From the IMG/VR virus record IMGVR_UViG_3300023371_000069: a stretch of DNA of 58,841 nt; one strand, given 5' to 3'. This document shows, piece after piece, positions 1 to 47,663 of the stretch. Source of the DNA: a virus. Taxonomy: Duplodnaviria; Heunggongvirae; Uroviricota; Caudoviricetes. The notes beneath the pieces are model-generated. The model saw only the letters and a program-made list of their open reading frames with translations, had not been told where the DNA came from and made no database searches. Every line of letters begins with the position of its first letter. Position 1 is the first letter of the stretch. Position numbers and translations under genes: made by a program.

Positions 1-492
1 CGACAGGAATGGATTATCATTAGTTTCCTGGTAAACAGGAATTTCAATTTCCCCTTGGGGAATCGGAACACTAGCCGTGGCGAGCGCTTGAGCGATTTCC
101 GCAGCTTCATATCCCTAACGCTTCATAGTTTCTTCAATTTTCTTATTTGCGACTTCTTGTAAGAACTCAGTATCTTTCCAACGATAATCTCTAAACTGCT
201 TTAGTTTCATCTTTGAAAGATAACGACCTACAATAGTCGTACCAGTTAATTTAGAACGGTCTTTACCATATGATGCCAGTAACTTGTTCCATTCTTCTGG
301 AACATATGGAACATCACATTCTTGTAAAATCCATAAATAAGTATCTGGATTAAAATTATCTACATGCATCGTCGCACACTTCTTACATTTATGCAACTTA
401 CCTTCTGGATACTTACTTGTATTATTAGACCCATAGAACTAATCAGCGTTCATTGTTCGATTACATTTTTCACAATAAAAGCTTTCAGCCAT
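1..492 (-). CDS. Zn-ribbon protein (CxxC..CxxC), C-terminus runs off window; 2 in-frame TAG (439-441, 115-117)
   Basis: ATG at 490-492 with AAGGAGG about 8 nt upstream. The frame stays open through both TAGs to the window edge. The track ORF 115..396 is its middle segment. Confidence 0.6.
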
Positions 493-534
493 AAAAATTC
501 CTCCTTTACTTATAATGAAAATTCAAGGCCGGAA

Positions 535-1587
535 TTATGACTTTTTGGCCTTAGAGTTTCTGCACTTTTTACAAATACTGTAAAAGCCATCTTTTGAAGT
601 CTTATTCTTACTAAAATATTTATTATGTGCTAATTTAATTTCTCCACAGCGGCTGCACTTCTTATACTTACCTTTCATTTCATTTAAAAAATACCAGTTA
701 AGTAATCTATCTTCCGCCTCGGAAGCTATTAATTTTGGAATTTTATTTCTCCATAAACTTGAAATATATTCAACACTATGTTTAATCCCAAATTCCATTT
801 GAAGTTTTTCTTGAATGTCAATATTTTGCAACCCATCAACTTTGTATTCACAAATGCGGTCATATAAAGGATAATCTTTTAAAGCTGCATCCGCAACTTC
901 ATCAAATTCCTACATAAGATACCACAAATCCTTTTCAAACTCTCCCCAACTTTCTTGCTTCATTAAGGAGTAGTTACATAAGATTGCTGAAACGACTTTC
1001 GGGTCACATAAAGAAACACCCTCTGGAATCACATAACCTTCATCGTCAAAATCAAAGTCGCTTTCTAAAGGTATAAAGTGTTTCGAGCGGGTGATATTTT
1101 TGGGGATTATTGGTTTACGATAGGCATCTTTAAGAATATATTGGTCCTTTCGTAATTCGATAATCGCAGTCTTGATGATAAAAGCATCACGCCCGGAAGT
1201 AGTCTTTAACTTCTGTTCCCACATCTTAATGGCTTCTCTTAATTGTGCTAACCCAGGTATCTCTTCTACATCTTTCTTTGTTATCATTACTTTTGGTTGA
1301 AAAATCTAATTCTTATCATTACTAATCATTCCATAAATGCCATCTTCGCCATTTTCGAGTTGGGAAACAAGACCTTCGAAAGAAGTTTCACGTTTATTGA
1401 CTGTGGCCATTCGGTTCTCAGTTAATAGCTTACGCTCCTTTTTCTCTTGTTTCTCCATGCAAAGAACTAGGTAGTCCGCAAGTGTCTCAAGGTACTAGGG
1501 AGTAGGATTGGGACACTCTTCTAAAATTTTTTCGACTAACTATTTTCTTTCTTCTGGAGATTCTAAAGTATAATTTAATTTGGTCAT
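535..1587 (-). CDS. hypothetical protein with C-terminal Zn-ribbon; 4 in-frame TAG (1540-1542, 1495-1497, 1306-1308, 910-912)
   Basis: ATG at 1585-1587 with GGAGG 7 nt upstream and a sigma70-like promoter. One frame of 351 codons links track ORFs 910..1287 and 535..831 and extends upstream. It ends in TAA at 535-537. Confidence 0.6.
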
Positions 1588-2217: not shown

Positions 2218-2432
2218 TTATTGCTATTTTATGGGCAATCATGTCACTCCTGGTGATGATTCAATATGCACCAGCCTGTAAAGATTTAAATTGGAAAGAC
2301 CAATTAATCGTAGGCATTATCTTTATTATTGGCGGTCCAATATTCGCGGCCGCAAATGTACTTGAAGCAATTTTAGACTGTATTTTACCGGAAGGGTGGG
2401 GGGATGACGACGATGGTCCTTGGAAATATTAA
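2199..2432 (+). CDS. small membrane protein
   Basis: In-frame ATG with GGAAGGA upstream. It has two predicted transmembrane helices and an acidic C-terminus. Confidence 0.4.
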   Translation: METSGLIIAILWAIMSLLVMIQYAPACKDLNWKDQLIVGIIFIIGGPIFAAANVLEAILDCILPEGWGDDDDGPWKY

Positions 2433-3216
2433 AGAATATACTAAAGCACTGAAAGAACAATTTAAAGACCGCATTACCGCAATTGGTGATGCACCTAAGT
2501 TAGCAATTATCCAAGTTGGAAATGTAGAAGCATCAAATCGTTATATCAAAAACAAAGTGAAAGATTGTGAAGAGGTCGGTATCATTGCTGATGTTTATCA
2601 ATATCCAGAGGATATTACTGAACATGAGCTATGTGAAAATATCAAGCTCGACCAGGAACACTATGACGGCGTTATAGTGCAACTACCACTCCCACCTCAT
2701 ATCCGCGAGAAGGTCGTGGTTGCCGCAATCAATCCTTTGAAGGATGTTGATGGATTTCATCCAGATAGTCCTTATGACCCAGCAACTCCCGCAGGCATCA
2801 TGAAATATCTTCGTGCTTGCGATTACGACGTTGCGGGACGCGACGTCGTAATCATTGGTCGCAGTAATATTGTTGGTAAGCCTTTGGCGAGAATGATGAC
2901 AGACGCAGATGCGACAGTAACTCTTTGCCACAGTAAATCAAAATTGTCACATCATTTGTATGGGGCTGACCTGATTGTCACAGCAGTAGGTAAAGCAGGC
3001 TTTTTAAATTGCTACCCAATTCATGTGCCTGTTATTGACGTCGGCATTAACTTTGTAACAGATGCTGAAGGCAGAAGCCGACTTGTCGGCGATGCCTTCA
3101 ATACAGAAGGACGAGATGTAACACCAGTTCCAGGAGGGGTCGGTCTTTTGACCAGATGCGCACTTTTGGAGAATGTAATTGATGCGAAAGCAAGGGTGAG
3201 TTTAAAACGTGGATAA
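2404..3216 (+). CDS. folD: bifunctional 5,10-methylene-tetrahydrofolate dehydrogenase/cyclohydrolase
   Basis: 270 aa carrying FolD motifs: LAIIQVGN..AS..Y, DVDGFHP, TPAGIM, VIIGRSNIVGKP, VTAVGK, PVPGGVGLLT. Confidence 0.85.
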   Translation: MTTMVLGNIKEYTKALKEQFKDRITAIGDAPKLAIIQVGNVEASNRYIKNKVKDCEEVGIIADVYQYPEDITEHELCENIKLDQEHYDGVIVQLPLPPHIREKVVVAAINPLKDVDGFHPDSPYDPATPAGIMKYLRACDYDVAGRDVVIIGRSNIVGKPLARMMTDADATVTLCHSKSKLSHHLYGADLIVTAVGKAGFLNCYPIHVPVIDVGINFVTDAEGRSRLVGDAFNTEGRDVTPVPGGVGLLTRCALLENVIDAKARVSLKRG

Positions 3217-3451
3217 ATGGACTTTGATTTTATTAGAAGTTGAAGGTATGTGGGAAGCAGATAGCTATGCCGCATATCTAGGGCAAATTGGCTGCGACCC
3301 GCAGAAGTATCGGGTAGAACGAGATACTTTTAAAGCTGACCGCATTTTTGCCCTTTATGGATATGATTATTTCTTGCGATTTGTAGAGCGGTGCCCGCAT
3401 ATCCAAGAGATGATAGAAAAATATAAACCCTGTGACCAGAACGGCGGCTAG
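3209..3451 (+). CDS. hypothetical protein (ends in TAG; may extend 18 codons to TGA at 3506-3508)
   Basis: Track ORF. Its terminator is TAG, which is otherwise avoided in this genome. Confidence 0.4.
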   Translation: MDKWTLILLEVEGMWEADSYAAYLGQIGCDPQKYRVERDTFKADRIFALYGYDYFLRFVERCPHIQEMIEKYKPCDQNGG

Positions 3452-3486
3452 TGCACAATGTTCTGTGCCTACTATAAGGAAGGAGG

Positions 3487-3723
3487 ATGTACATTATGCC
3501 AATGAGTGATTGGATTAACAACGCGCAATTGATTCCAGAAGGCAGACCATATAAGGTTGATAGTTCAAGTCGAATTGTCGTACCTTCTCATTTGAAAGCA
3601 AAATTTGGAATTGAAAATGGCGACAATATGGACTATTATACCACCTTTGTTGATGGCAGATGGTTTATTTGTGTAACTAAGCACGTTGAAGAAGAGGAAG
3701 CAAAAAATGAAGAAAATATTTAA
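3487..3723 (+). CDS. AbrB/SpoVT-like swapped-hairpin DNA-binding protein
   Basis: RIVVPSHLKAKFGIENGDNM matches the AbrB N-domain pattern. SD AAGGAAGGAGGA lies upstream. Confidence 0.45.
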   Translation: MYIMPMSDWINNAQLIPEGRPYKVDSSSRIVVPSHLKAKFGIENGDNMDYYTTFVDGRWFICVTKHVEEEEAKNEENI

Positions 3724-4231
3724 ATATAGATTGCCAAGAGATGGCGAAGTAATTACCATTCATGCGGATGTAATTAAATGGCTAGATATCCAAGAGCAAA
3801 ATGGCTGGCCTCACATCTGGGCAATCGTCGAAGAAAATGGCAATGCGAGAAACTATGAGATTGCGGCCTGGGGTACCGGCTGGATGGTTCCCGACGAGTT
3901 GATGTTCATGAGCTATCTAGGAACAGCGCAAGACCTGGGTGGTTATGTATGGCATTATTTCATGCGCGAGGCTGATTCTATCTATGAGCCTATCACAGTA
4001 TAGGAATATGACTATAATCCTTACGATTATACTTTGACAACAAAGGGACAGCCAGACCCCGGATACAGCATTACGATTTCTTGCGGCGAGGCCGGTTCAG
4101 CGGTCTCTGGACTGGAATCAAAAGTGTATAATGATTATACAACAAGTATTGACAATTTGCAAGGTGTCGTGGAATATTTAACTGCGGCCGTGGCAACCGG
4201 TAAAACGGCATCTGTAAGAGCGTGTACGTAA
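3707..4231 (+). CDS. hypothetical protein with an in-frame TAG at 4001-4003
   Basis: Track ORFs 3686..4003 and 4034..4231 are in the same frame and separated only by a TAG. ATG at 3707 has GAGGAAG upstream. The final stop is TAA. Confidence 0.5.
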
Positions 4232-4354: not shown

Positions 4355-5118
4355 ATGCCACCATTAAAAATTATACCAGGTATGAAATTTGGAGAATGGG
4401 AAGTTATTGAAAGAGATTATCATCCAACTTCTAAGCAGCATTCAACATTTTGGTTTTGTAAATGTGGATTATGTGGAGAAGTAATTAGTGTTTCAAGAGA
4501 TAGCTTAGTAAATGGAAAAAGTGAATGTTGTAATAAATGCAAAGGAGAAAAGATTAGACAAAAAGCAGAAGAAAGAGGTTTAATTTCTTGGCATAAAGGA
4601 GATAGATTTGGCTTATTAGAAATTATAGATAGAGCTGAATCAAAGGTAATCACAGTTATGTTAAATGTAAGTGCGAGTGTGGTAACATTATTGATGTCAG
4701 AGTTGAGCATTTAAAAGGTCAATTTCATAATCGTACTATTTCTTGTGGATGCGCTTCTCAATCCAGCGGAGAAATAAAACTTACTCAGCTATTGGTAAAA
4801 GCAGGTATTGATTTTCAAACACAGTATAGGATTAAAGAGTTCAATATTTTATCACCATTTGATTTCGCCATTTTTAAAGATGGTAAATTATTGGGATTGA
4901 TTGAATATGATGGTCAGCAACATTTTGAAGCTGTTGAATTATGGGGTGGAGAAGAACAGTTAAAAATTCAACAAGAGCGTGATACAAGAAAAAATCAATG
5001 GTGTAAGGAAAATAATATTCGTCTTATTAGAATACCATATACTGAGTATAATAATTTGACAATAGGGTACCTATTATCTTTTTTCCCAGAATTATCGTTT
5101 TCCGAAATTGAAAATTGA
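4355..5118 (+). pseudogene. putative homing endonuclease (CxC-repeat N-domain plus a DUF559/Vsr-like C-terminal domain), -1 frameshift near 4655-4665
   Basis: The N-terminal part matches track ORF 4304..4714 from the ATG at 4355. The C-terminal part matches ORF 4792..5118, in a different frame. The shifted frame reads KCKCECGNIIDV...IEYDGQQHF and aligns with the paralogue at 39516..40244. Confidence 0.45.
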
Positions 5119-7498: not shown

Positions 7499-7825
7499 AT
7501 GTTAAAGAGCATGAGCATCACCGTGAGTTTCACCGACCACTGCTACACCGAACGCAGAGAAAGACTTGTAAAAATGGATAGAGAGTTAGGCTTCGGCGAA
7601 ATCATTTGCACCACAATTTACAGAGGAAAGAGAAACTGCTTGACTTCCACTGGTATCTTAATGGTAATGGATGCCAAGAGCAACATTCTTGTCACCGCCT
7701 ACCCTGCAAGATGGAAGATTGCCTGCAAGATGTTCTACGAAACTACTGGTGGTTATCCTCCTGCTGGTTACTCTGAAATCATCAGACGGGCAAAAGCATG
7801 GGACTGTGAAAATAATTGGATTTAG
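7499..7825 (+). CDS. hypothetical protein
   Basis: ATG follows agagaggagagtaaatcaa. Confidence 0.5.
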   Translation: MLKSMSITVSFTDHCYTERRERLVKMDRELGFGEIICTTIYRGKRNCLTSTGILMVMDAKSNILVTAYPARWKIACKMFYETTGGYPPAGYSEIIRRAKAWDCENNWI

Positions 7826-7828
7826 GGG

Positions 7829-7857
7829 TTGACAAATCCCTAAATCTATGGTATAAT
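7829..7857 (+). promoter_or_regulatory. class 1 early promoter
   Basis: TTGACAAAtccctaaatctaTGgTATAAT. Confidence 0.6.
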
Positions 7858-13076: not shown

Positions 13077-13155
13077 AAGTATGTAAAGAGGAAAACCTCT
13101 TACAAATAAATTCATCGACAGGTTCAAGTCGTTAAAACCGAAAGGAATTGATACT

Positions 13156-13515
13156 ATGGCTAACAACAAGAAGATGACCAAGGCTGACTACTTCAAGCAG
13201 ATTTCTGCCAACTACCCTCTGACTGCCGATGAGCAGGCTTTCATCGCCCACGAACTGGAACTGCTCGCCAAGAAGAACTCTGCGGAAAAGAAGCCGACCG
13301 CACAGCAGGTGGCAAACGCAGGTGTCGCTGATGCCATCGTCAATGCGATGGAAGATGGTGTCCTCTACACCATCACCGACCTCATCAAGACTGTTCCTGC
13401 GTGTGCGGAACTGACCAACCAGCGTGTTTCTGCCATCGTGCGTGGTATGATTGGCACCAAGGTTGAGCGTGTCGAGGAAAAGCGTAAGGCATACTTCCGC
13501 AAGATTGCGGAGTAA
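13156..13515 (+). CDS. early protein family A, copy 1
   Basis: Paralogous to 16185..16553 and 17720..18088. Shares ELELLAKKNSAEKKPTAQQ and PACAELTNQRVSAIVRG. Confidence 0.55.
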   Translation: MANNKKMTKADYFKQISANYPLTADEQAFIAHELELLAKKNSAEKKPTAQQVANAGVADAIVNAMEDGVLYTITDLIKTVPACAELTNQRVSAIVRGMIGTKVERVEEKRKAYFRKIAE

Positions 13516-13586
13516 GCCTACTCCCCCAAGGGCAGGGGGTAACCCCTGCCCACCTTGACCCCGGCGAAAAAATTTTCAAAAAGCAC

Positions 13587-13615
13587 TTGACAAATCCCTC
13601 TGTCTGTGCTATACT
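13587..13615 (+). promoter_or_regulatory. class 1 early promoter
   Basis: TTGACAAAtccctctgtcTGTGcTATACT. Confidence 0.6.
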
Positions 13616-13640
13616 ATAATCACAGAAAGGAAGTGAGTCA

Positions 13641-14000
13641 ATGCTTGATGAAAAGTTAATTGCCAAGCACATGGCAAGCCTCGGCATCAGCCGAGAGGAA
13701 GCAATCCAGTTGATTGAGGATGACAAAGCAATCGACAGGGGCGCAAAGATGTTTGAGCTTGACCCCGAACTTGAGAAAGGCGCAAAAAAGGCAAGACAAG
13801 CCGAGCGCAAGGTCAGCACCACCCCAGTGAAGCGAGAGAAGAAAGCCAAGCCTGAAAAGGCTGAAATCTGCTCCGCAATGATGGATGGTCTGCGAGTTTT
13901 GGGTGTGGAAGATTTCACCATCAACAACCCCGAACGCGAGTTCTTGTTCATCCACAATGGAACGAAGTACAAGGTCACACTTGCCTGCCCTCGTTCCTAA
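13641..14000 (+). CDS. early protein family B, copy 1
   Basis: Paralogous to 16670..17041 through the EEA.QLI.DDKAIDRG motif. Confidence 0.55.
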   Translation: MLDEKLIAKHMASLGISREEAIQLIEDDKAIDRGAKMFELDPELEKGAKKARQAERKVSTTPVKREKKAKPEKAEICSAMMDGLRVLGVEDFTINNPEREFLFIHNGTKYKVTLACPRS

Positions 14001-14266
14001 GGCTCCTAAGGGGTCGAGCCAATCGGCCCCATTCCATTGGCGGTGTGCTGTCATCGTCTGGAGGTAAACCACTAGGGGGAAGGCGCCCAACCCTGGGGTA
14101 TGGTACTAAAACAAAACAGCCGAGAAAAGACCCAGGGGGGCGCCCTTGGGTCTTCGTCATTTTGCACAAAAATTCGGCCGCGCGCTGACGTACGCCAGCG
14201 CCGGTTTTTCGGCGAAATAACCAGTTTCAACAATTTTTGGGGCGAAATCTTTGTGCAAATTGACTA

Positions 14267-14295
14267 TTGACATTTCCCATTATCGGGTGTATAAT
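14267..14295 (+). promoter_or_regulatory. class 1 early promoter
   Basis: TTGACAtttcccattatcggGTgTATAAT. Confidence 0.55.
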
Positions 14296-14324
14296 AAGGG
14301 TACAAAGTCAAGGAGGTAACAACA

Positions 14325-14507
14325 ATGGGTATGACTTACAAGCAGTTCATGGACTACGCAATGCAGAACTACTGCAACGGCGGTGATTGTGTGGTCGAGT
14401 GTTGGGATGAACTCTCTTTCCGCTACTACTGCGAAGAGTTCGGTCCGATGACCAAGGAAAAGGCTGACAGTCTCTTCCGCACTTACCGCGGTTGTGGGGG
14501 GTACTAA
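14325..14507 (+). CDS. small Cys-containing protein
   Basis: ATG follows aaggaggtaacaaca. Confidence 0.5.
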   Translation: MGMTYKQFMDYAMQNYCNGGDCVVECWDELSFRYYCEEFGPMTKEKADSLFRTYRGCGGY

Positions 14508-14542
14508 TTCCCCACAAAAGAAAAAAAGTTTCAAAAAACCTA

Positions 14543-14572
14543 TTGACAAACATCCAAAAGTGTGCTATAATA
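14543..14572 (+). promoter_or_regulatory. class 1 early promoter
   Basis: TTGACAAAcatccaaaagTGTGcTATAAT. Confidence 0.6.
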
Positions 14573-14602
14573 ATTACAGAAAACAAGAAAGGAACTGATA
14601 CT

Positions 14603-14848
14603 ATGAAAATGTTCAATGAAATGTCCCTCAAGTCCATCCGCAACAAGCTCAGCAAGGTCGGTGTCACTATGACCGACGAGCAGTTCAACTCCCTCACCTA
14701 CTCCGAACTCCGCAAGGTGTACAAGAAGTCCAAGAGGGCTTACGCACTCTATGAGCAGGTGGATGCCATTATCAACAAGCCAAAGGCTCCCACTCCTGCG
14801 GTGCCGATGCCTGCCAAGGACAACGACAAGGATGCCAGGGGGTTCTAA
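14603..14848 (+). CDS. hypothetical protein
   Basis: ATG follows aagaaaggaactgatact. Confidence 0.5.
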   Translation: MKMFNEMSLKSIRNKLSKVGVTMTDEQFNSLTYSELRKVYKKSKRAYALYEQVDAIINKPKAPTPAVPMPAKDNDKDARGF

Positions 14849-21356: not shown

Positions 21357-21662
21357 CTCATTTTTCCTTTCGATTTTCATTTCATTTTTGATTTCAATTT
21401 CAGATTTTCAAACGAGATTTTGAAATCAGTTTTTCTTCCTACTATTATTATACAAAATTTTATTTTAATTTTCAAATTAAAAATGGATTATCTAGCAAAG
21501 GTTCAATTTCAATTTTCGATTCATTTTTCTAAATTGGTACTATATACATCTTTGGGTCTCCACTTCGCATATATACCTTCACTTCTACCACATTCTCTGG
21601 TAATTTATCATAACTACCCATAGCGAATTTTACTGCTCCCTTAGGTATCTCAAAACCTTCCA

Positions 21663-21881
21663 TTACTTCACCTTCAATTCTACTTTAATACCATTTTTAA
21701 TAGTTTCAATTAATCTTTCTTTGAAACTATCAATATCAAACTTAAATTTATCTACAATCATATCGATTTCTTGTTCATACCATTCTGGATGTTCAATTGG
21801 AGAACTTAATTCCATACCATAATCTTCTCCAATCATCCGAATAGTTCCATTTCTTAATTTGTTTTCATCTAAGATAATCAC
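21663..21881 (-). CDS. small hypothetical protein
   Basis: ATG has GGGAGG upstream on the minus strand. Confidence 0.45.
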   Translation of the reverse strand: MIILDENKLRNGTIRMIGEDYGMELSSPIEHPEWYEQEIDMIVDKFKFDIDSFKERLIETIKNGIKVELKVK

Positions 21882-21974: not shown

Positions 21975-22060
21975 TTATAAGGATACTATTTTTTTAACAA
22001 AGTATGTACAAAATTTTAACACTCATGCGTCTAAATTTTTAACACTTTAATTCAACGTAT
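21975..22060. repeat. iteron-like repeats (..GTCTAAATTTTTAACA / GTACAAAATTTTAACAC), 2-3 copies
   Basis: Same repeat family as at 22735-22880. These copies lie downstream of the initiator-like gene. Confidence 0.5.
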
Positions 22061-22667
22061 TAGTTAACCAGTCTAATTGATAAATTGTTTTCACATTTTG
22101 AAAAGTGTCCGCCTCTTGTTTCATTGTAGTCAATGAATACTTAATCAGCCCCACCTTTTCTAATACATACAGGATATTCGTTACGGTATCATTATTACTT
22201 CTCGTGCTTGTGCTAATTCCAATATAACTCTTTACCTGGTCTAATGTAAACTAAAACGGACGACACTCATTAGCATAATAACAATTCAATAAATAAATAT
22301 AAGTTGAAATAGAATTCTCACTTAAAGTGTCTGTAATTAACTTTAATGTCCCATATGGAACCAAAGAAGCTAAATCAGCACTTAATTCAACTAATCTATA
22401 TGTATCTTTTCCTGCTTCAACAACTAAACCCAATTCCTTTAGATTCTTAAACTTCGTTGAAACCGTCTGTCTCGATAAGTTAAACATCTCACCAAGCTTA
22501 CTAAAATTTATATCTTTCTTTGAAAAATATCTAGTTCCGCTCTTCTCATCTCTTGTTGAGATACACTGAAGATAAGCATAAAGAATATCATAATACTTTT
22601 TATTCGAACAAATATCTTTAGCCTTGGGAACCTGTCTTGAATTTGGTTGAATCTTTAACACAATCAC
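22047..22667 (-). CDS. winged-helix DNA-binding, initiator-like protein with an in-frame TAG at 22251-22253
   Basis: Track ORF 22251..22667 ends at TAG, but the frame continues 67 more codons to TAA at 22047-22049. The gene is flanked by iterons. Confidence 0.45.
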
Positions 22668-34982: not shown

Positions 34983-36065
34983 ATGTTAAGCGAATTTATG
35001 TTAAAAGTGAGAGACTTGCACGAGGAAATCAGACAGGTAGCTGAACTTCTGAAACCTCAAGAGATGAAAGACCGTATGGCTTATCTCGAAGCTAAGTTCA
35101 ACCACTCAACCTGGAATGAAATTCCAGAAGAGGAGCTGAAGGAATACTCTCGCCTCAAAAAGAAATATGATTTATATTTCGGTATCTGGAATATGTATGA
35201 TGACCTTAAAACTTTAACTGAGTATGCAATAGAGGAAGGCGAAGTCAACTATTTGCATGAATTTGAGATGGATTATAATTACCTCGTCGAGGAAATCCAA
35301 AAGCTCAAGTTAGAGTTAATGTTCACAGGTAAGTACGATTCCTGCAACGCCATTTTAAATATTCATTCTGGTGCCGGTGGTAAAGAAGCACAAGACTGGA
35401 CCAGAATGTTACTTCAGATGTATGCGGCCTGGGCTAGTAATCATGATTTTCAATTCAATATTTTGGATTGGCAAGATGGTGAAGATAGCTCAGTCGTGAA
35501 AAGTGTTTCGGTAGAAATCAGAGGAGAGAATGTATACGGCTTGCTGAACGCTGAGAATGGCGTCCATCGTTTGGTTCGCGTTTCTCCCTTTGATTCTCAA
35601 AATAGACGCCATACTTCATTCGCAGCAGTCGAAGTAATGCCTGAAATCGAGGCAGATAACTCTGTGGAACTCGATATGAAAGATGTTAGAGTTGATACTT
35701 TCCGTTCAAGCGGAAAAGGCGGTCAGCACGTCAATAAGACTGAATCTGCGATTAGATTAACACATATTCCTACTGGCATTGTGGTGGGGTGCCAGCAAGA
35801 GCGAAGTCAACATCAGAACAAAGAAAAAGCCATGAAGATGCTTATCTCAAGGCTGGTTGCTATTAAAGAAAAAGAACACTATGACAACTTGTCTGAAATT
35901 CAGGGCGAGCAGAGTCGAATCGAATGGGGCAACCAAATTCGTTCTTATGTCTTTATGCCATATCAAATGGTTAAAGACCACAGGACTAACCACCAAACTT
36001 CTAATATTGACGCAGTGATGCGTGGAGATATAGATGAATTCATTTTCAAGAGTCTCGCTGAATAA
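34983..36065 (+). CDS. prfB: peptide chain release factor 2 homologue
   Basis: RF2 'anticodon' motif SPF (RVSPFDSQNRRHTSFA). GGQ catalytic motif (RSSGKGGQHVNKTESAIRLTHIPTGIV). About 360 aa. SD GAGGAGG. Confidence 0.85.
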   Translation: MLSEFMLKVRDLHEEIRQVAELLKPQEMKDRMAYLEAKFNHSTWNEIPEEELKEYSRLKKKYDLYFGIWNMYDDLKTLTEYAIEEGEVNYLHEFEMDYNYLVEEIQKLKLELMFTGKYDSCNAILNIHSGAGGKEAQDWTRMLLQMYAAWASNHDFQFNILDWQDGEDSSVVKSVSVEIRGENVYGLLNAENGVHRLVRVSPFDSQNRRHTSFAAVEVMPEIEADNSVELDMKDVRVDTFRSSGKGGQHVNKTESAIRLTHIPTGIVVGCQQERSQHQNKEKAMKMLISRLVAIKEKEHYDNLSEIQGEQSRIEWGNQIRSYVFMPYQMVKDHRTNHQTSNIDAVMRGDIDEFIFKSLAE

Positions 36066-39515: not shown

Positions 39516-40244
39516 ATGCCTAAAAGCGAAAATTTAGTTGGGCAAGTATTTCATAGATTAACAGTTATTTCCAAAGATGCTGAAGCATCTAAAAAGCATG
39601 GACGTTCTTATTGGCTATGTTAGTGTGAATGTGGAAAATAGAAAGTAATCGCAGGATTGAGTCTAAAAAATGGAGCTACAAAAAGTTGTGGTTGCTTACG
39701 CAATGAACGAGTATTTGAAGCTATTGCAAAAGATGAAGTTGGTAATCATTATGGAAAATTAACTGTTTTATCTATGGATAAAGAACGAGATAGTTTTGGA
39801 CGTATTAAATGGATATGCCAATGTGAATGTGGTAATATAAAATCTATTAGTGGGTCAGATTTGCGAAGTGGTAATACTCAAAGTTGTGGATGTATTTCTC
39901 GAATTTCTCGTGGAGAGCAAAAAATTATTGATATTTTAGAGCAATTTAATATATCATACATTAGAGAATATAAACCAATAAATTTGGGTAATAAAAGATT
40001 TGACTTTGCTATTTTAAATGATAATAATGAAGTAATTCGTTTAATTGAATTCGATGGAGAGCAACATTATAAAGAAAGTAATTGGGAACGAGAAAAGTTA
40101 AGTCGTACCCAAGAATCTGATAAAATTAAAAATCATTATGCTTTAAGTCTATCTATTCCTTTAGTAAGAATTCCATATTGGGAATTAGAAAACTTAAATT
40201 ATAATATGCTATTTTCACAACATTATGAAATAAAAGGAGAATAA
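39516..40244 (+). CDS. putative homing endonuclease (CxC-repeat N-domain plus DUF559/Vsr-like IEFDGEQHY..RIPY C-domain) with 2 in-frame TAG near 39622 and 39640
   Basis: ATG has AGAGGTGAG upstream. The frame continues through ..WLC[TAG]CECGK[TAG]KVIAG.. into track ORF 39657..40244. It is a paralogue of 4355..5118. Start coordinate is +/-1. Confidence 0.5.
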
Positions 40245-40705: not shown

Positions 40706-40777
40706 TTTGCGATAGTCAAATGGTTAAGACATTACCCTCCTACGGTGAAAGTTGGGGTTCAAATCCCCATTGCAGTT
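40706..40777 (+). tRNA. tRNA-Arg(CCU)-like
   Basis: D-arm, anticodon arm TTACC/CTCCTAC/GGTGA and T-arm TGGGG/TTCAAAT/CCCCA. The acceptor stem has a 1:72 mismatch and two G:U pairs. Confidence 0.4.
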
Positions 40778-40796
40778 AAATTTAGTGCCTTGATAT

Positions 40797-40871
40797 AGGG
40801 GAATCGTATAATGGCTAGTACGACAGTCTCCAAAACTGCTTGTTGGGGTTCGAGTCCCTATTCCCCTGCCA
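40797..40871 (+). tRNA. tRNA-Trp(CCA)
   Basis: Acceptor AGGGGAA/TTCCCCT, anticodon loop CTCCAAA, T-loop TTCGAGT, encoded CCA. Confidence 0.65.
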
Positions 40872-40892
40872 AAAGAAAGGAATGTGGTATTT

Positions 40893-41063
40893 ATGCATCA
40901 ACATTTTGTAAAAGGTAAAAAACTATTACTTATTTTCAAAGATGGGCATCAAGAACTCGGGAAATATAGAGTGACCGATAAAGGTATTCTGTATTTTTCT
41001 GACCGTAAACCAGTTCCTTTAGATAAGCTGCGATGTGCAGGTTATTATAAACCAGCAACATAA
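40893..41063 (+). CDS. small hypothetical protein (56 aa)
   Basis: ATG-initiated ORF between tRNAs. Not in the ORF track (<60 aa). Confidence 0.3.
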   Translation: MHQHFVKGKKLLLIFKDGHQELGKYRVTDKGILYFSDRKPVPLDKLRCAGYYKPAT

Positions 41064-41069
41064 ACTTCT

Positions 41070-41098
41070 TTGATTTTTATAAAAAAATATGTTATAAT
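41070..41098 (+). promoter_or_regulatory. class 2 promoter cassette
   Basis: Cassette consensus. Confidence 0.6.
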
Positions 41099-41131
41099 AT
41101 TTATGTAAGATAAAGAAAGGAAATGATAGCT

Positions 41132-41518
41132 ATGGAAAAATCTTATTTTGATAGACCTACGCAGGTTGTGTTCGCTGACCCCGATAATCCCGGCGAGTGG
41201 CTTTCCGGTATCGCTTATCGAGATGAAATTATCTGCGGCTGTTGCGGCGGAGTATTCGATATCGACGATGTAATCGAGATGGCTCGCGAGGACGGTGTCA
41301 AATGCGCAATTCACGAGTATCACGAATGGAATGATATTGCTGATGAAATCGTTGGCGGTGAACTCCCCGAGACTCTGGACCGCAACGAAGATGGTGAAAT
41401 CTATGAGGTTTCTGATGAAGATTACGAGCAGCACTCTTTCCTTTTGGAAGAGGAAGAGGAAGCAGCTGTTTTCGCTAACACTTGGGTTGATGGCGTGGCA
41501 ATGCCCTCCATTAACTAA
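41132..41518 (+). CDS. acidic Cys-containing protein
   Basis: ATG follows aaagaaaggaaatgatagct. Confidence 0.5.
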   Translation: MEKSYFDRPTQVVFADPDNPGEWLSGIAYRDEIICGCCGGVFDIDDVIEMAREDGVKCAIHEYHEWNDIADEIVGGELPETLDRNEDGEIYEVSDEDYEQHSFLLEEEEEAAVFANTWVDGVAMPSIN

Positions 41519-41534
41519 GTAAAAAGATTTCTCT

Positions 41535-41563
41535 TTGATTTTTCAAAAAAAATATGTTATAAT
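41535..41563 (+). promoter_or_regulatory. class 2 promoter cassette
   Basis: Cassette consensus. Confidence 0.6.
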
Positions 41564-41655
41564 ATATATGTAAGGTAAAGAAAGTGATATGCACGAATCG
41601 CTTTCGATTCCATACAACCTTTTCCATTAAAAAGACGGTAACAGCAATTAAACGA

Positions 41656-41745
41656 TTGCTTGGGGTGCCGGAAGTCGCAGGTTCGAGTCCTGCCTCCCGC
41701 TCCGCTTATGCGGGAGTAGTTCAGCTGGATAGAACGCCGTATATC
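41656..41745 (+). other. permuted tRNA-like element (3' part with Pro-like loop TTGGGGT, T-arm and acceptor 3' strand, then the complementary 5' part with D-arm)
   Basis: ..GCAGGTTCGAGTCCTGC CTCCCGC TCC, then GCGGGAG TA GTTC AGCTGGATA GAAC. Confidence 0.4.
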
Positions 41746-42039
41746 GAAAAAATCCCGTCTTGAAAAAGTACCAAGAGGCTGATAAGAAATGGGTTAGCTG
41801 CCAAAGTATTTGATGTGAGGTGCCGGTCTGAGTAGCCGTATTGCCGGATAATAGAGCTACAGCGTTTGAGATGGTCAGCAGCCACCCTTTGTCGTTTGCT
41901 ACAAGAACGAAAGATGATTGGCTCGCCCCTAAGGATTATGGACTTAACAGGTGGGTTAAGGCGGATGGTAAAGTCCAATGCTAGTGTGGGTTTGATAGTT
42001 TCCCTCTCTGCGGAGGAAAAACTAATCAAAAAATCTTTC

Positions 42040-42068
42040 TTGATTTTTTACAAAAAATATGTTATAAT
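42040..42068 (+). promoter_or_regulatory. class 2 promoter cassette
   Basis: Cassette consensus. Confidence 0.6.
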
Positions 42069-42100
42069 ATATATGTAAGATAAAGAAAGAAATTAAATAT

Positions 42101-42176
42101 TGCCCTGTAGCTCAGTCGGTAGAGCGCCAGACTGTTAATCTGGATGTCGTGGGTTCGAGCCCCACCGGGGCAGCCA
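42101..42176 (+). tRNA. tRNA-Asn(GUU)
   Basis: Acceptor TGCCCTG/CGGGGCA, anticodon loop CTGTTAA, encoded CCA. Confidence 0.75.
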
Positions 42177-42320
42177 GCCGTAAGGCGTTTGTTGTTGTGA
42201 GGATTTTCTCGCTCGGAGGTTTTAGTACACCGTTTCTCCGGTAACCAAATATAAGCGGGTACACTCTCAAGTACCGCCCCAGAGTCGAGAGTATAATAAA
42301 ACTCGTGGGGCACTCCGCCT

Positions 42321-42405
<85 letters not shown>

Positions 42406-42586
42406 CGATGCCCAGCGTTGCGGCTGGGGGCAGAAAAATTGCTCGTGTCCATACGATAGTTGGGCGTTTGTTGAGGAAACTACGAGAAATAAGTATCCTC
42501 CCTCAATCAAGTGGTCGAAGTCCGAGGTTAAAGTCTTATGCCAGGGTGGTTGGCAACTCCATCAGTACATAAATAAGTTGCAATAT

Positions 42587-42662
42587 GGGGTCGTAGCTCA
42601 GTTGGGAGAGCACCTGCCTTGCAAGCAGGGGGTCGCGGGTTCAAGTCCCGTCTTCTCCACCA
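42587..42662 (+). tRNA. tRNA-Ala(UGC)
   Basis: Anticodon loop CTTGCAA and G3:U70. The acceptor has U:U and C:U mismatches at 5:68 and 6:67. CCA is encoded. Confidence 0.5.
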
Positions 42663-42665
42663 TAT

Positions 42666-42736
42666 GTTTTTCTGGTCTAAGGGTAGGGCGACGGCGAGGG
42701 AAGCCGTAGATGTTGGTTCGATTCCAGCGGAAAACA
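42666..42736 (+). tRNA. tRNA-like gene with an atypical anticodon loop (GAGGGAA, no U33)
   Basis: Good acceptor GTTTTTC/GGAAAAC, D-arm and T-arm. Anticodon identity is uncertain. Possibly a pseudogene. Confidence 0.3.
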
Positions 42737-43174
42737 TATTAGATTTATAAAAGCTCCGTTAGTTTAATGGCGAGAACGCACGAAGTAATAGGTGTTGTAT
42801 CGGTTCGAGTCCGGTACGGAGAAATCTCTCCTGGCTGTGTAAGCTAAGGTGAGTGGGTTATCGATTAGAAGAGATGGCGTTGATAATATTAGCCGATAGA
42901 GATGTATGATAACTCTTTATTAAAGTTAAGTCCTTTAGTAGTGTTTTTGTCTTTGAGTTTGCTATGAGTTGGGACTATAAACTGAACTCCAAAAGAAGAA
43001 AGACGGTTGTGCGAGTGCCCTAAAACGCTCCGGTACGGCCTTACCGCAACAGGAACAGCCCTAAATGGGGCGGTAAAGATACATGGTGTGTTTAGTTGAT
43101 TCATTGCCGGAAGAATTAGAATCGCCAGTGATGCTGCTGTGCGGGGCTGCAGACCCCTAAAATGCGTTTAACAT

Positions 43175-43261
43175 GGGGATATGATGGAATTGGTAGACGT
43201 GTCAGACTCAAAATCTGATGACCGAGAGGTCGTGTGGGTTCGAGTCCCACTATCCCCACCA
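43175..43261 (+). tRNA. tRNA-Leu(CAA), type II
   Basis: Acceptor GGGGATA/TATCCCC, loop CTCAAAA, long variable arm, encoded CCA. Confidence 0.7.
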
Positions 43262-43361
43262 AGAGGGCCGGTCATACGCGTTAATACCGGATAGCCAAAG
43301 CGAAGTTCCCAATGCGGGTTGCAAACTGCTGCGGTAAAATATTCTCCCCTCCGCCAAATAT

Positions 43362-43446
43362 GTCCGAGTGATGGAATAGGCAGACATGCTACATTCAGAG
43401 TGTAGTGTCGAAAGACGTGCGGGTTCAAGTCCCGCCTGGGACACCA
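43362..43446 (+). tRNA. tRNA-Leu(CAG), type II
   Basis: Loop TTCAGAG, disc A, long variable arm. One G:G mismatch in the acceptor. Confidence 0.55.
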
Positions 43447-43684
43447 TCGGGGAAAGCCCGACAAAAAACATTGCAGAGAATAACATGGTTTAGAGTGAGT
43501 ACATGAGTAATAGCTATAGGCAGCTAAACCGGGCCTGGCTATAGGGGTGTGCCGAGAGTTTGGAGCGATGTTCTCTTCAACCGAGACAAGATGGGAGGAA
43601 ACGAGCGAATAGTCCTCACCGTCCATGGAACGGCGACGCGGTAAAGAATTCGTAACCGCACTTGTAGTAGGTTATCTTTAATAT

Positions 43685-43760
<76 letters not shown>

Positions 43761-43930
43761 TTGACTTTATATGAGTCTGAGGCTAGGGTCGGCTTGACAA
43801 CAAATGACTCACAGGTAGCGGCGAACTGGACAATCTAGCCGTGGGCTTCAGTGCATGGTCCCTATTATGCTCCGGCACCTTGGATGCTGAGAAGTGGTTG
43901 CTAGCGCCATTCCAAATCAAAAAATCTTTC

Positions 43931-43959
43931 TTGATTTTTTACAAAAAATATGTTATAAT
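43931..43959 (+). promoter_or_regulatory. class 2 promoter cassette
   Basis: Cassette consensus. Confidence 0.6.
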
Positions 43960-43993
43960 ATATATGTAAGATAAAGAAAGAGAGGTAATTCAA

Positions 43994-44119
43994 ATGCAGA
44001 AATTTGATGATTTTGACACTCAGATTCAGTGTGAAGAAGTCTACAATGAAGAAATGTATGAAGCCTGGATGGCTTACAATGACTCTCTTGAAGACCCGAG
44101 GTACATTGATGAAGAATAA
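43994..44119 (+). CDS. tiny acidic ORF (41 aa)
   Basis: ATG follows agaaagagaggtaattcaa. Confidence 0.3.
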   Translation: MQKFDDFDTQIQCEEVYNEEMYEAWMAYNDSLEDPRYIDEE

Positions 44120-44122
44120 TTT

Positions 44123-44197
44123 GGCCCCTTAGTCAAGCGGTTAAGACGCCGCCCTTTCACGGCGGAGACGGGAGTTCGACTCTCCCAGGGGTCACCA
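44123..44197 (+). tRNA. tRNA-Glu(UUC)
   Basis: Loop CTTTCAC, T-loop TTCGACT, encoded CCA. Confidence 0.75.
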
Positions 44198-44392
44198 GGA
44201 GCGAAGTAACAGTGGGAAGTCATGACTGAACCTGCGAAAAACTCAGAGGTTTGTTCGCGTATGAGAAAAACGCTTCTTGAGCCTTACAAAAACGAAGCGG
44301 GAATGTCTCCTAGAGCTGCGGTTGAGAGGAAATGCCGAGCGGTGTGAGAAACCTTACAATCTCTTGGGCGGGTGCGCAACTGCCCAATATCT

Positions 44393-44467
44393 GGCCCCGT
44401 AGTCAAGCGGTTAAGACGTCGGCCTCTCACGCCGAAGACCCGGGTTCGATTCCCGGCGGGGTCACCA
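44393..44467 (+). tRNA. tRNA-Glu(CUC)
   Basis: Loop CTCTCAC, encoded CCA. Confidence 0.75.
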
Positions 44468-44844
44468 TTGGGCAAAGCCCACAAATGCGTTAACATGGAT
44501 TTGTAAGTTAAACTACCACCGGCTGAGGATACGCAGAGCAATACTGATGCCTTGGATATGTGGCTTTAGTGGAAAACGCTATATAAAGAAGCAAAGTAAA
44601 CTTACACAAGCGAATGAGCAGACAAATTGCGGCCAATAGACTTTCGCTACCGCAAAGATACTGAAACGGGTCAGGTCCAATCGCCCGACTAAGATGCTGA
44701 GGTAAATGAGGTTGGTTTGGGGCTTACTTATGGAAAGCATAAGGACATCCTACGAAAGTAGAGGTACACTCCCCTGTAAAATGCCTACGGCAGTAAAGGT
44801 GGCTCTGAAAAATGTGTCCGCTTAGTCTATAGTATCTTACATAT

Positions 44845-44922
44845 AGCTTCGTAGAGAAGCCTGGAGTTCTCGCCAGTCTGTCACACTGGAAATCGCGGGT
44901 TCAAATCCCGTCGAAGCTGCCA
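44845..44922 (+). tRNA. tRNA-Asp(GUC)
   Basis: Acceptor AGCTTCG/CGAAGCT, loop CTGTCAC, encoded CCA. Confidence 0.65.
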
Positions 44923-45090
44923 TAAAGGTATGTTCCCAGTACCTTGTAGCGGAAAACCTGGGCGTGGAAGAGGAGACGAAAGAATCGCTTTTTTAAGTAG
45001 TAAGTTTTGATGGAGAAACTGCTTCGGGTGTTGATGTGACCCTAGGGCTTAAGAGCATATTAGAGGATAGCTGTCCAACATCATTTATAT

Positions 45091-45167
45091 GGCTTCGTAG
45101 TTCAGTAGCGTAGAATGCCAGCCTGTCACGCTGGAGGTCGGGGGTTCGAGTCCCCTCGGAGTCGCCA
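45091..45167 (+). tRNA. tRNA-Asp(GUC), second copy
   Basis: Acceptor GGCTTCG/CGGAGTC, loop CTGTCAC, encoded CCA. Confidence 0.7.
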
Positions 45168-45279
45168 TCATCCTAACAAAGGAGGATTTTGCTTATGATT
45201 GTATTTGTTAAATCCACTTCGGAGGACACTCCAATCGGCTGATTGGGTTCCTGGGCATGAACAGAAACTGCCCACTATA

Positions 45280-45811
45280 TGCCCGAGTAGCTCAGTTGGT
45301 TTAGAGCGCCGCCCTCATATCGAGCAATACCATATTTGTAAAAAGTAATGGATACAAATATTAAAGGAACAATTACAGAATTAAAGTGTAAAACTTACTT
45401 TTTAGAATTAGGTTATATGGTTTCTACACCAGAAAGCCCAGTTCGATATGACTTCATTTTAGATACTGGTAAAGAGTTGCTGAAAATTCAAGTCAAAACC
45501 AGTCATACCGATGGAGAAAAAATTATCTTCAAAACGAGTTCAACTCATATTACCGCAAAAGGAAATACAGTGCATCACTATAAAGATGATGGTATAGATT
45601 ATTTTTGCACTTGGTTTGATAATGAATGTTATTTGGTACCTGTGCAAGATTGCGGAAAAAGTGAAAAATATTTACGATTGATTCCCACTAAAAATGGGCA
45701 AGTCAAAAATATTGCTTTTGCGAAAGACTATGTTGCAAAGGAGGTCTTAGCAAATAAGTGAGCTTGATATGAAGGCGGAGGTCGTGGGTTCGATTCCCAC
45801 CTTTGGTACCA
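45280..45811 (+). tRNA. tRNA-Met(CAU)-like gene interrupted in the anticodon loop by a 454-nt insertion encoding a nuclease
   Basis: 5' part GCCCGAG TA GCTC..GAGC G CCGCC CTCAT (45280-45317). 3' part AA GGCGG AGGTC GTGGG TTCGATT CCCAC CTTTGGT A CCA (45772-45811). The anticodon stem matches across the break, but the acceptor pairing is imperfect. Confidence 0.4.
45348..45761 (+). CDS. Hjc-like PD-(D/E)xK nuclease, putative homing endonuclease (copy 1)
   Basis: Paralogue of 53105..53512 and 56023..56430. Sits inside the split tRNA gene. Confidence 0.5.
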   Translation: MDTNIKGTITELKCKTYFLELGYMVSTPESPVRYDFILDTGKELLKIQVKTSHTDGEKIIFKTSSTHITAKGNTVHHYKDDGIDYFCTWFDNECYLVPVQDCGKSEKYLRLIPTKNGQVKNIAFAKDYVAKEVLANK

Positions 45812-45888
45812 ACCGCTAAGGCGGTTTTCATTTCCTTTCATGTGCGGTCGTGGGGGCTCCGACCGGAAAAACAATCCCCCTTTGATAT

Positions 45889-45965
45889 TGCAGGGTAGAG
45901 CAGTCTGGCAGCTCGTCGGGTTCATAACCCGGAGGTCGGAGGTTCGAATCCTTCCCCTGCACCCA
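45889..45965 (+). tRNA. tRNA-Met(CAU), possibly the initiator type (3 G:C pairs in the anticodon stem)
   Basis: Acceptor TGCAGGG/CCCTGCA. Anticodon arm TCGGG/TTCATAA/CCCGG. Encoded CCA. Confidence 0.6.
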
Positions 45966-45966
45966 T

Positions 45967-46043
45967 TGCGGAGTGGAGCAGATGGTAGCTCGTTAGCCTC
46001 ATAAGCTAAAGGTCGCTGGTTCGAGTCCAGCCTCTCGCACCCA
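45967..46043 (+). tRNA. tRNA(CAU) (Met, or Ile2 if modified)
   Basis: Anticodon arm TTAGC/CTCATAA/GCTAA. The acceptor has a mismatch and a bulge. Confidence 0.4.
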
Positions 46044-46109
46044 AGGGATAGCACTCCCTTTCTTGACGTGATGTTTTTTAGGCACACACAGCAATATTTT
46101 TCTTTAAGA

Positions 46110-46172
46110 AAAAATTTAGCTCATTTGGTAGAGCAATTGTCTGTTAAACAATGTGTAGTGGGTTCAATTCCC
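46110..46172 (+). tRNA. tRNA-Asn(GUU)-like with an A/T-rich acceptor, possible pseudogene
   Basis: Anticodon arm ATTGT/CTGTTAA/ACAAT. No CCA. Confidence 0.25.
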
Positions 46173-46282
46173 TCAATTCTTTCTTTTGTGCCTAGTCAAA
46201 AGCATCGGCAGACTGAAAATTGGACTGAAAAATTTAATGTGGTCTACTTAAAATTCAATAATAGTAGAAGGAGTTGAGTTTT

Positions 46283-46765: not shown

Positions 46766-46805
46766 AAAACCGAGAACGGTGGTTCGACTCCACCCCGTCC
46801 CACCA
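46730..46805 (+). tRNA. tRNA-Phe(GAA)
   Basis: Acceptor GGGACGG/CCGTCCC, loop CTGAAAA, T-loop TTCGACT, encoded CCA. Confidence 0.65.
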
Positions 46806-47065
46806 CAGTGTGAGAAGTCACTGTTATAAAAACTTCTCAAAAAAGACCGGTAAGCGGGGACCCACATCAACCCAAACAGTTTTTGTCTTGTTGTTTCATA
46901 TTTATGCCTCCTCATATATATAAAGCGGATGTGGCTGCCGGGAACGTACCCTTTCTATATATTCTGAAATATATAGAAACAAAAACTATTTCTGTGGTAG
47001 AGAGTTTTTACATCTAGGCTCGGCTGAGTTTGTTTTTTACTCTACCATTTCTTCATACTTTGTAT

Positions 47066-47155
47066 GGAGAGGTGGGTGAGTGGCTTAAACCAGCTCCCTG
47101 CTAAGGAGCCGACCCGATTTAGGGTCCGAGGGTTCGAATCCCTCCCTCTCCGCCA
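47066..47155 (+). tRNA. tRNA-Ser(GCU), type II
   Basis: Acceptor GGAGAGG/CCTCTCC, loop CTGCTAA, long variable arm, disc G, encoded CCA. Confidence 0.7.
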
Positions 47156-47660: not shown

Positions 47661-47663
47661 TAT

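Follow-up and report, generated by a model that had tools for sequence, protein, structure and literature searches.

A tailed-phage genome fragment that very probably decodes TAG as glutamine, with two CUA suppressor tRNAs and its own release factor 2

The DNA analyzed here, IMG/VR virus record IMGVR_UViG_3300023371_000069 (58,841 bp, 42.6% GC; referred to below as the window), is part of a tailed-phage genome in which several reading frames run through in-frame TAG codons. The phage very probably (about 0.9) decodes TAG as glutamine, that is, uses genetic code 15, with its own CUA-anticodon tRNAs and its own release factor 2 (RF2). The original prediction, based on the reading frames, was that TAG is a sense codon in the manner of the TAG-to-Gln recoding of some gut phages, and this was supported by protein profiles, orthologues, tRNAs and RF2. 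The recoding call therefore stood, but the evidence listed for it had missed the strongest support, namely two CUA tRNAs and an RF2 gene in the same window.

All six TAG-containing frames put forward originally were present, each with an ATG or GTG start, a Shine-Dalgarno (SD) sequence and the claimed number of TAG codons, and with the frame at 1..492 running off the window (Table 1). Together they contain 13 in-frame TAG codons and no TAA or TGA; for random nonsense codons drawn from the three stop codons, the chance of 13/13 being TAG would be at most (1/3)^13, or ∼6e-7. Profile alignments crossed the TAG codons in five of these genes. The sigma-factor-like gene was matched by phrog_5767 (annotated "sigma factor"; E 2e-51, residues 29 to 346) in one alignment across three TAGs, the YonG_N-like gene by phrog_3314 (residues 2 to 120) across its first TAG, and the winged-helix gene by phrog_3396 (residues 20 to 193) across its only TAG. 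Both TAGs of the HNH gene were spanned by two HNH endonuclease profiles, phrog_559 (residues 30 to 230) and phrog_4538 (residues 9 to 220), while in the PD-(D/E)XK nuclease gene PF11645 (E 8e-15, residues 7 to 107) crossed one TAG and phrog_5018 (residues 5 to 117) crossed two. The full-length YonG_N-like gene was found in L081, an independently assembled 104-kb ENA contig with 99.99% identity to window positions 1-11586, where it has three TAGs and a match to PF27269.

Two further frames were informative through their relatives in loci L003, L006 and L008. For the small Cys-rich gene, the possible extension past the TAG at 3451 proved to be real, as the residues downstream of the TAG (CTMFC..GGCT) were conserved in all three, and the TAG itself faced Q in L008 and N in L003 and L006. 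In the DUF7352 gene, the PF24043 match was limited to residues 1 to 89 and stopped just before the TAG at 4001; the same three loci have uninterrupted versions of 165 to 190 residues, and L008 has the post-TAG motif PY.ISISC. Therefore, the C-terminal extension is coding and, judging from these alignments, is a lineage-specific tail outside the DUF7352 domain. Within the window, the first TAG of the HNH gene faced Q in the gene's own internal repeat (C#CECG versus CQCECG). The TAGs of the PD-(D/E)XK gene faced F/T, K/K and K/L in its TAG-free copies at 53105..53512 and 45348..45761; the claim that they align with ordinary sense residues thus held, whereas the name "Hjc-like" given to this family did not, PD-(D/E)XK (PF11645) being the better assignment. 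Window paralogues were considered as a guide to the amino acid inserted at TAG and set aside as uninformative (K, L, F, T). The three copies (45348, 53105 and 56023) are dispersed between tRNA genes.

The identity of the amino acid was examined in orthologues. A protein search with the sigma-like gene gave thousands of close relatives, of which 80 orthologous loci from IMG/VR (L001 to L080; 64 to 99% identity) were used and aligned codon by codon. None of the 80 sigma-like orthologues contained an in-frame TAA or TGA, and TAG was found 0 to 7 times in each; in the YonG_N-like gene the range was 0 to 10. For each of these two genes, 61 unique orthologues were analyzed. In the sigma-like gene, TAG alternated with glutamine codons at column 127 (CAA 28, TAG 28, CAG 3), column 161 (CAA 28, TAG 29, CAG 4) and column 272 (CAA 41, TAG 15, CAG 5). 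At its TAG sites, the most similar sequence lacking TAG at that position had Q in 107 of 146 cases (73%), against a Q background of 2.9%. The corresponding figure for the YonG_N-like gene, taken from the nearest neighbor lacking TAG at that column, was 165/292 (57%), and TAG was found in all nine of its conserved-Gln columns. With both genes pooled, TAG occurred in 14 of 16 conserved-Gln columns versus 11 of 403 other conserved columns (Fisher p = 1e-17). At the level of codon comparison this shows TAG to be a sense codon equivalent to CAA and CAG, and hence predicted to specify Gln and not Ser. The aligned homologues, proposed originally as a check, thus place Gln opposite TAG at conserved columns, and the accompanying statement that Gln and Ser are undecidable from sequence no longer applies, given this alternation and the Gln-type acceptors of the tRNAs described below. 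No TAG was present in 12 of the 61 unique YonG_N-like sequences or in a similar fraction of the sigma-like loci, which suggests that these orthologues belong to standard-code relatives and that the code may vary within the clade.

Two adjacent tRNA genes with the anticodon CUA, Sup1 and Sup2, lie within the tRNA array of the window, and in the Rfam alignment of Sup2 the CUA arm was placed as the anticodon arm. Both acceptor stems are of the Gln type, with a U1.C72 mismatch in Sup1 and a U1-A72 pair in Sup2, followed in each by G2-C71, G3-C70, G73 and an encoded CCA. Among the window tRNAs compared, the UGGGG start and ..CCCC(A/C)GCCA end were found only in these two suppressors and the two ordinary tRNA-Gln. 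The identity set of E. coli glutaminyl-tRNA synthetase (GlnRS) comprises a weak or open 1:72 pair, G2-C71, G3-C70, G73, U35, G36 and G10. Sup1 and Sup2 both carry the acceptor part of this set. In the anticodon, U35 is kept and position 36 is A, as needed to read UAG; position 10 is G in Sup1 and U in Sup2, and in Sup2 two neighboring bases resembling U35 and G36 occur in the loop of an extra arm. Short (class I) CUA suppressors of the Sup1 type, without an extra arm, were present in the window and at L085, L087, L088, L093, L095, L097, L098, L101-L103, L107, L108, L117-L119, L122 and L123; their first pair was almost always U1.C72 or U1.U72, with G73. Such a mismatched first pair would favor the opening of 1:72 needed by GlnRS. 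According to a recent preprint (PMC12636597), 28 of 29 phage tRNA-CUA tested inserted Gln at UAG in E. coli extracts. The genes are tightly packed, with the TGA of 56023..56430 lying 3 nt ahead of Sup1 and base 1 of Sup2 directly following the encoded CCA of Sup1; RNase P cleavage of Sup2 would therefore make the mature 3' end of Sup1.

The release factor gene gave 445.5 bits with TIGR00020 (prfB; cut-off 370), compared with 250 to 262 bits for the RF1 models (cut-offs 400 to 423), and its product contains the SPF (RVSPFD) and GGQ (GKGGQH) motifs. On these profile scores and motifs it is a genuine RF2, which recognizes UAA and UGA and not UAG. Bacterial prfB typically has an autoregulatory +1 frameshift near codon 26; the phage gene is uninterrupted, with 360 codons aligning to profile positions 2 to 352 and no such frameshift. 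Relatives of the phage type (55 to 99% identity) were found on contigs of up to 202 kb, and an IMG/VR locus search with RF2 as a single protein found nothing. The bacterial RF2s nearest to it (47 to 55%) were almost all from gut metagenome-assembled genomes (MAGs) of Oscillospiraceae and other Clostridia, which points weakly to a standard-code gut bacterium of the Clostridia (Oscillospiraceae-type) as the probable host. The genes flanking RF2 (429, 571, 134, 273 and 463 residues) had no match in Pfam, NCBIfam or PDB sequences. They were considered as candidates for a synthetase or an RF1 antagonist and rejected for lack of a family match, PHROGs giving only phrog_18912 (unknown function) for the 571- and 463-residue proteins, which are paralogues with 27% identity.

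Gene models were built with a home-made caller, not Prodigal, which combined codon log-odds, SD and start-codon terms and chose the best non-overlapping set. The total score was 2563 under table 11 and rose to 2622 with TAG as sense, whereas the controls with TGA or TAA as sense fell to 2433 and 2226, so that only the TAG-sense code outscored the standard one. Coding density over 1-40.6 kb increased from 0.70 to 0.77. Re-prediction, as proposed originally, thus raised both measures, and the claim that TAA and TGA still terminate was borne out by 65 gene models ending in TAA and 21 in TGA under the TAG-sense code. No gene model requires TAG as a terminator; under table 11 only seven "genes" end in TAG, three of them pieces of the two leftmost genes. 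The median open frame following a TAG "stop" was 38 codons, compared with 12 after TAA and 9.5 after TGA. TAG accounts for 16 of 12,224 codons and 4.5% of Gln codons (CAA 152, CAG 187, TAG 16). The density gain was modest because TAG occurs in only 9 of the 87 gene models (10% of genes). The RF2 gene, its neighbors, the tRNA genes and nearly all small open reading frames (ORFs) of the tRNA array are free of TAG, with the exception of 56023..56430 and its three TAGs. The minus-strand operon of sigma-like and Yon genes extends to the left of the window with more TAG-containing genes. Over the window and positions 10001-20997 of L081, two styles of Gln codon usage were observed, with TAG-using genes favoring CAA (e.g., CAA 9, CAG 1, TAG 4) and some TAG-free neighbors using almost only CAG (CAG 12, CAA 1; CAG 11, CAA 1).

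A scheme consistent with these data is that UAG would be read by the two phage CUA tRNAs on their Gln-type acceptor stem, most likely after charging with Gln by the host, either through GlnRS or through glutamyl-tRNA synthetase (GluRS) plus GatCAB. The phage RF2 would keep termination at UAA and UGA efficient without reading UAG, and host RF1 may be outcompeted or disabled by some further factor. The phage would begin in the host code, with full-length products of TAG-containing genes made only after the suppressors appear. The sparse TAG usage and the TAG-free RF2 and tRNA genes appear compatible with the published early-standard-code model (10.1101/2021.08.26.457843).

Several observations weigh against glutamine decoding or soften it. 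TAG is rare in the window, and the gain in coding density is correspondingly small. A number of the window TAGs sit in columns that vary, with E, K or T in relatives, and the window paralogues have K, L, F or T, never Q, opposite some TAGs. The Q found at TAG in database proteins was written there by code-15 gene calling and is not independent; it was not used as evidence, since the encoding DNA does not give those proteins under table 11. For the TAGs at 7823 and 21527, leaky or genuine termination is just as likely. RF2 alone leaves host RF1 in place, so efficient read-through would need another factor, and the similarity of RF2, the sole basis for naming a host, is a weak pointer.

The rarity of TAG would also fit a phage in which TAG is mainly a stop and the TAG frames are leaky-termination genes with a short and a long product, as would the DUF7352 profile ending just ahead of its TAG and the two TAGs placed 5 and 18 codons before another stop. 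This reading is improbable, however, as up to 4 TAGs per gene in the window and up to 10 in the orthologues fall within conserved domains and Gln columns, a sigma-like protein cut off after 15 residues could serve no purpose, the phage encodes RF2 and two dedicated suppressor tRNAs, and no gene model needs TAG as a terminator. Reassignment to another amino acid, whether pyrrolysine, Ser, Lys or Glu, could be argued from the ARAGORN label "Pyl" on the CUA tRNAs, which derives from the anticodon alone, from the long variable arm of Sup2, which resembles that of Ser, Leu and Tyr tRNAs, and from K and E being the next commonest residues facing TAG. K and E are, however, what usually replaces Q where a site is variable, and TAG has been taken up by the conserved Gln columns. 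The acceptor stems are of the Gln type, and the D- and T-loops are normal: tRNA-Pyl has a short D-loop without GG, a 3-nt variable loop and no T-psi-C motif, and belongs to a system with pylS and pylBCD, whereas Sup1 and Sup2 have GG D-loops, TTCGA T-loops and variable regions of at least 4 nt. No pyl genes were found among the window proteins scanned against family libraries. A different amino acid is thus very unlikely, more so than leaky termination.

If instead the host itself decoded TAG as an amino acid and the phage merely matched it, TAG should be frequent, as phages of recoded hosts use the reassigned codon in ∼90% of genes (10.1101/2021.08.26.457843). Here TAG is absent from 78 of 87 gene models, the phage carries its own suppressors and RF2, and the most similar bacterial RF2s come from ordinary Oscillospiraceae/Clostridia MAGs, which makes a recoded host slightly less probable still. 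That the TAG frames are pseudogenes or assembly artifacts might be suspected from the one real frameshift in the window, in the HNH paralogue at 4355..5118. It is effectively refuted by the 13 TAG versus 0 TAA/TGA in the six frames, by the identical TAGs in the independently assembled contig L081, and by TAG being the only in-frame stop in 80 orthologues. Glutamine decoding of TAG was therefore retained as the preferred explanation.

What makes the locus more interesting is the extra arm of Sup2. The 27-nt variable region of this tRNA folds, in the minimum-free-energy (MFE) structure, into a fifth arm, CACGG-CUCUGAC-CCGUG, with a 7-nt loop (CUCUGAC) identical to the anticodon loop of the window tRNA-Gln(CUG). 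For amber suppressors, an IMG/VR scan constrained at the acceptor start, CUA loop and T-loop, and at no other position, returned 39 loci. Long-arm CUA tRNAs amounted to 17 distinct sequences, including Sup2, from diverse large phage contigs (L086, L090, L091, L096, L099, L100, L104-L106, L110-L112, L116 and L120-L122), and in all 17 the loop of the extra hairpin was YU-CUG-A or CU-UUG-A, i.e., a Gln anticodon loop. The stems vary and covary (CACGG/CCGUG, UACGG/CCGUA, CGCGC/GCGUG, GCC/GGC, GCG/CGC, CCA/UGG and UCA/UGA). In a 15-sequence alignment, the covariation score was 0.674, compared with 0.215 for shuffles (not attained in any of 500) and ≤0.16 for slid partners, and the loop bases equivalent to U35 and G36 were invariant. 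In several relatives the long-arm tRNA was the sole CUA tRNA within the fetched stretch. A corresponding scan for opal suppressors (Trp-type acceptor with UCA anticodon; IMG/VR loci L204-L258) gave an extra hairpin with a UCCAA loop, the anticodon loop of tRNA-Trp, in 27 of 28 distinct long-arm sequences with a proper acceptor stem. These hairpins have 4 to 7 bp, covarying stems and the loops CUCCAAA, UUCCAAC or GUCCAAA. The chance expectation for either loop motif was ∼2%.

Charging by GlnRS and by TrpRS is heavily anticodon dependent. The extra arm may, tentatively, be a decoy identity element that lets GlnRS or TrpRS (or GluRS/GatCAB) charge a tRNA after its own anticodon was altered to read a stop, a proposal held with less than even confidence; roles in modification, processing or dual decoding are alternatives for which the data leave room. 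No description of an extra arm bearing the cognate anticodon loop was found in full-text literature searches or in targeted passages of PMC12636597 and PMC10879173, which does not prove the arm to be undescribed. The charging of suppressor tRNAs in recoded phages has been stated to be an open problem (10.1101/2021.08.26.457843). The extra-arm architecture offers a testable answer to it and might also guide the design of engineered suppressor tRNAs; if the decoy reading is true, phages would have in this arm a general molecular means of reassigning stop codons.

Sup2 resembles the class II tRNAs (Ser, Leu and bacterial Tyr) and allo-tRNAs (PMC5389517) in having a long paired variable arm between the anticodon arm and the T arm. 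It differs from class II tRNAs in its Gln-like acceptor and in the 7-nt arm loop that equals the cognate anticodon loop. To our knowledge, a cognate anticodon loop in the variable arm is not a feature of class II tRNAs. Mimics of the anticodon arm exist outside tRNA, as in the E. coli thrS operator, where an isolated hairpin can be recognized by the anticodon-binding domain of a synthetase. The thrS mimic lies in an mRNA and represses translation, whereas that of Sup2 is part of a tRNA with a non-cognate real anticodon. The E. coli supE-type amber suppressor is a tRNA-Gln with a CUA anticodon, and GlnRS can mischarge CUA-anticodon tRNAs. Both phage suppressors share with it the CUA anticodon on a tRNA-Gln body (U1, G2-C71, G3-C70, G73), the retained U35 and the predicted insertion of Gln at UAG; they depart from it in the 1:72 mismatch of Sup1 and in the U10 for G10 and the added hairpin with CUG loop of Sup2.

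The window represents a further code-15 phage of an established class, and the recoding itself is ordinary for gut phages. TAG-to-Gln recoding has been described for the crAss-like, Lak, Garnet, Amethyst, Sapphire, Agate and Topaz phages (10.1101/2021.08.26.457843; PMC9523058) and proven by proteomics in the crAss-like phages (PMC9523058). As in those phages, in-frame TAG occurs in conserved genes and faces Gln, TAA and TGA are the terminators, a tRNA(CUA) is encoded by the phage, and part of the genes are recoded, with the code-change genes in standard code. TAG usage is lower, at 10% of genes in the window versus per-clade means of 26 to 71% (10.1101/2021.08.26.457843). No assignment of the lineage to a named clade was reached; it has a genome of ∼190 to 207 kb, SPbeta-like Yon genes, a 39-tRNA array and a ROOL RNA, and in size it resembles the ∼200-kb clades of that survey (10.1101/2021.08.26.457843). 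RF2 has been reported in some TAG-recoded genomes, those of Lak and Agate only, and the TGA-recoded Jade phages have a "code-change module" of suppressor tRNA, TrpRS and RF1 (10.1101/2021.08.26.457843, Fig. S6). The present set is likewise a suppressor tRNA plus a release factor blind to the reassigned stop, written in standard code. Unlike the Jade module, it is a mirror image (tRNA-CUA with RF2), the window showed no aminoacyl-tRNA synthetase, and the RF2 gene and suppressor tRNAs are 20 kb apart and not in one operon. Biologically the recoding adds little, being one more lineage with an unusually complete kit of two suppressors, RF2 and the tRNA array. For annotation, the genome and its relatives need gene calling under table 15, as otherwise the sigma-like gene, the Yon-type genes to the left and several nucleases come out in pieces.

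The window is part of a tailed-phage genome of ∼200 kb, distantly SPbeta/Enterococcus-EF1-like. Contigs with relatives in IMG/VR and other collections reach 190-207 kb, and the genes adjoining the window on its left have YonG, YonD and YonB domains of the SPbeta type. Among cultured phages, the sigma-like gene has its closest relatives in Enterococcus phages EF1 and VRE9 (40% identity), Brevibacillus phage Sundance and Geobacillus virus E3. A megablast search with the 30-40 kb region against deposited phages gave no match. The gene content is that of a large phage, with numerous small genes, a FolD-like gene (2404..3216), the release factor gene, the tRNA genes and the ROOL RNA, and no window gene has a known structural or lysis function. 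Coding is mainly on the plus strand, and in a frame plot minus-strand coding is confined to two blocks, 1-1.6 kb and 20.6-22.8 kb.

Table 1. Coordinates of TAG-containing genes, the release factor gene and RNA features in the window
Feature	Position	Strand	Size	In-frame TAG	Remarks
YonG_N-like gene, N-terminal part	1..492	-	164 codons of 405 aa	aa 18 and 126 (first bases 441, 117)	ATG, AAGGAGG; runs off window
Sigma-factor-like gene	535..1587	-	350 aa	aa 16, 31, 94, 226 (first bases 1542, 1497, 1308, 912)	ATG, AGGAGG-like SD; ends TAA
Small Cys-rich gene	3209..3505	+	98 aa	3449-3451	Ends TGA
DUF7352 gene	3707..4231	+	174 aa	4001-4003	Ends TAA
Further TAG-containing gene	7499..7843	+		7823-7825	Five codons ahead of TAA; extra case found in follow-up
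Small ORF	21472..21663	-		21529-21527	
Winged-helix / ScpB-like DNA-binding gene	22047..22667	-		22253-22251 (aa 139)	Ends TAA
Release factor 2 gene	34983..36065	+	360 aa	None	Single frame; PCRF and RF-1 domains
HNH/homing-endonuclease-like gene	39516..40244	+	242 aa	39621, 39639	Ends TAA
tRNA array	40706..58671	+	39 tRNA genes		Small ORFs and ROOL RNA between
tRNA-Gln(UUG) and tRNA-Gln(CUG)	51361..51581	+			Ordinary tRNAs; references for Gln identity
ROOL RNA, full length	52033-52624				Rfam RF03087, 312.6 bits, model positions 1-574; inside tRNA array
PD-(D/E)XK nuclease gene	56023..56430	+	135 aa	56029, 56038, 56158	Ends TGA
Sup1, anticodon CUA	56434..56508	+	75 nt		ARAGORN; Rfam tRNA 47.1 bits; cloverleaf MFE
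Sup2, anticodon CUA	56509..56605	+	97 nt		ARAGORN; Rfam tRNA 54.2 bits; five-arm MFE
OLE RNA, partial match	58280-58363				RF01071, 53.5 bits (gathering score 50), model positions 439-592 only

Two features of the left part of the window were examined as possible further irregularities of coding and rejected. A 570-codon frame at 13136..14845 (+) with 20 TGA and no TAA or TAG does not reflect TGA recoding and is an off-frame shadow of 13156..13515 and 13641..14000. Fragmented ORFs at 6-24 kb had been considered as frameshifts or another code; the frame plot showed an ordinary array of small plus-strand genes. Local paralogue families occur at 13156-18088 (13156/16185/17654, with 65 to 71% identity, and 13641/16670), and a further pair, 46283/50961, lies within 45348-56430. 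The HNH/homing-endonuclease paralogue at 4355..5118 is frameshifted by a 1-nt deletion in an A-run (GAATCAAAGG), and in L081 the frame is intact (254 residues); the deletion either truly inactivates the gene or arose during assembly.

In the tRNA array, the OLE-like match falls in a gene-poor part. Directly after the ROOL RNA, at 52631-52766, there is a tRNA-like gene (Rfam tRNA, 33.3 bits; no ARAGORN call) whose variable arm is long and whose anticodon loop is UAA (Leu). Beside the anticodon stem it is interrupted by a 58-nt insert that holds UCUAAAA; the insert may be intron-like, the gene may be disrupted, or this may be one more unusual tRNA.

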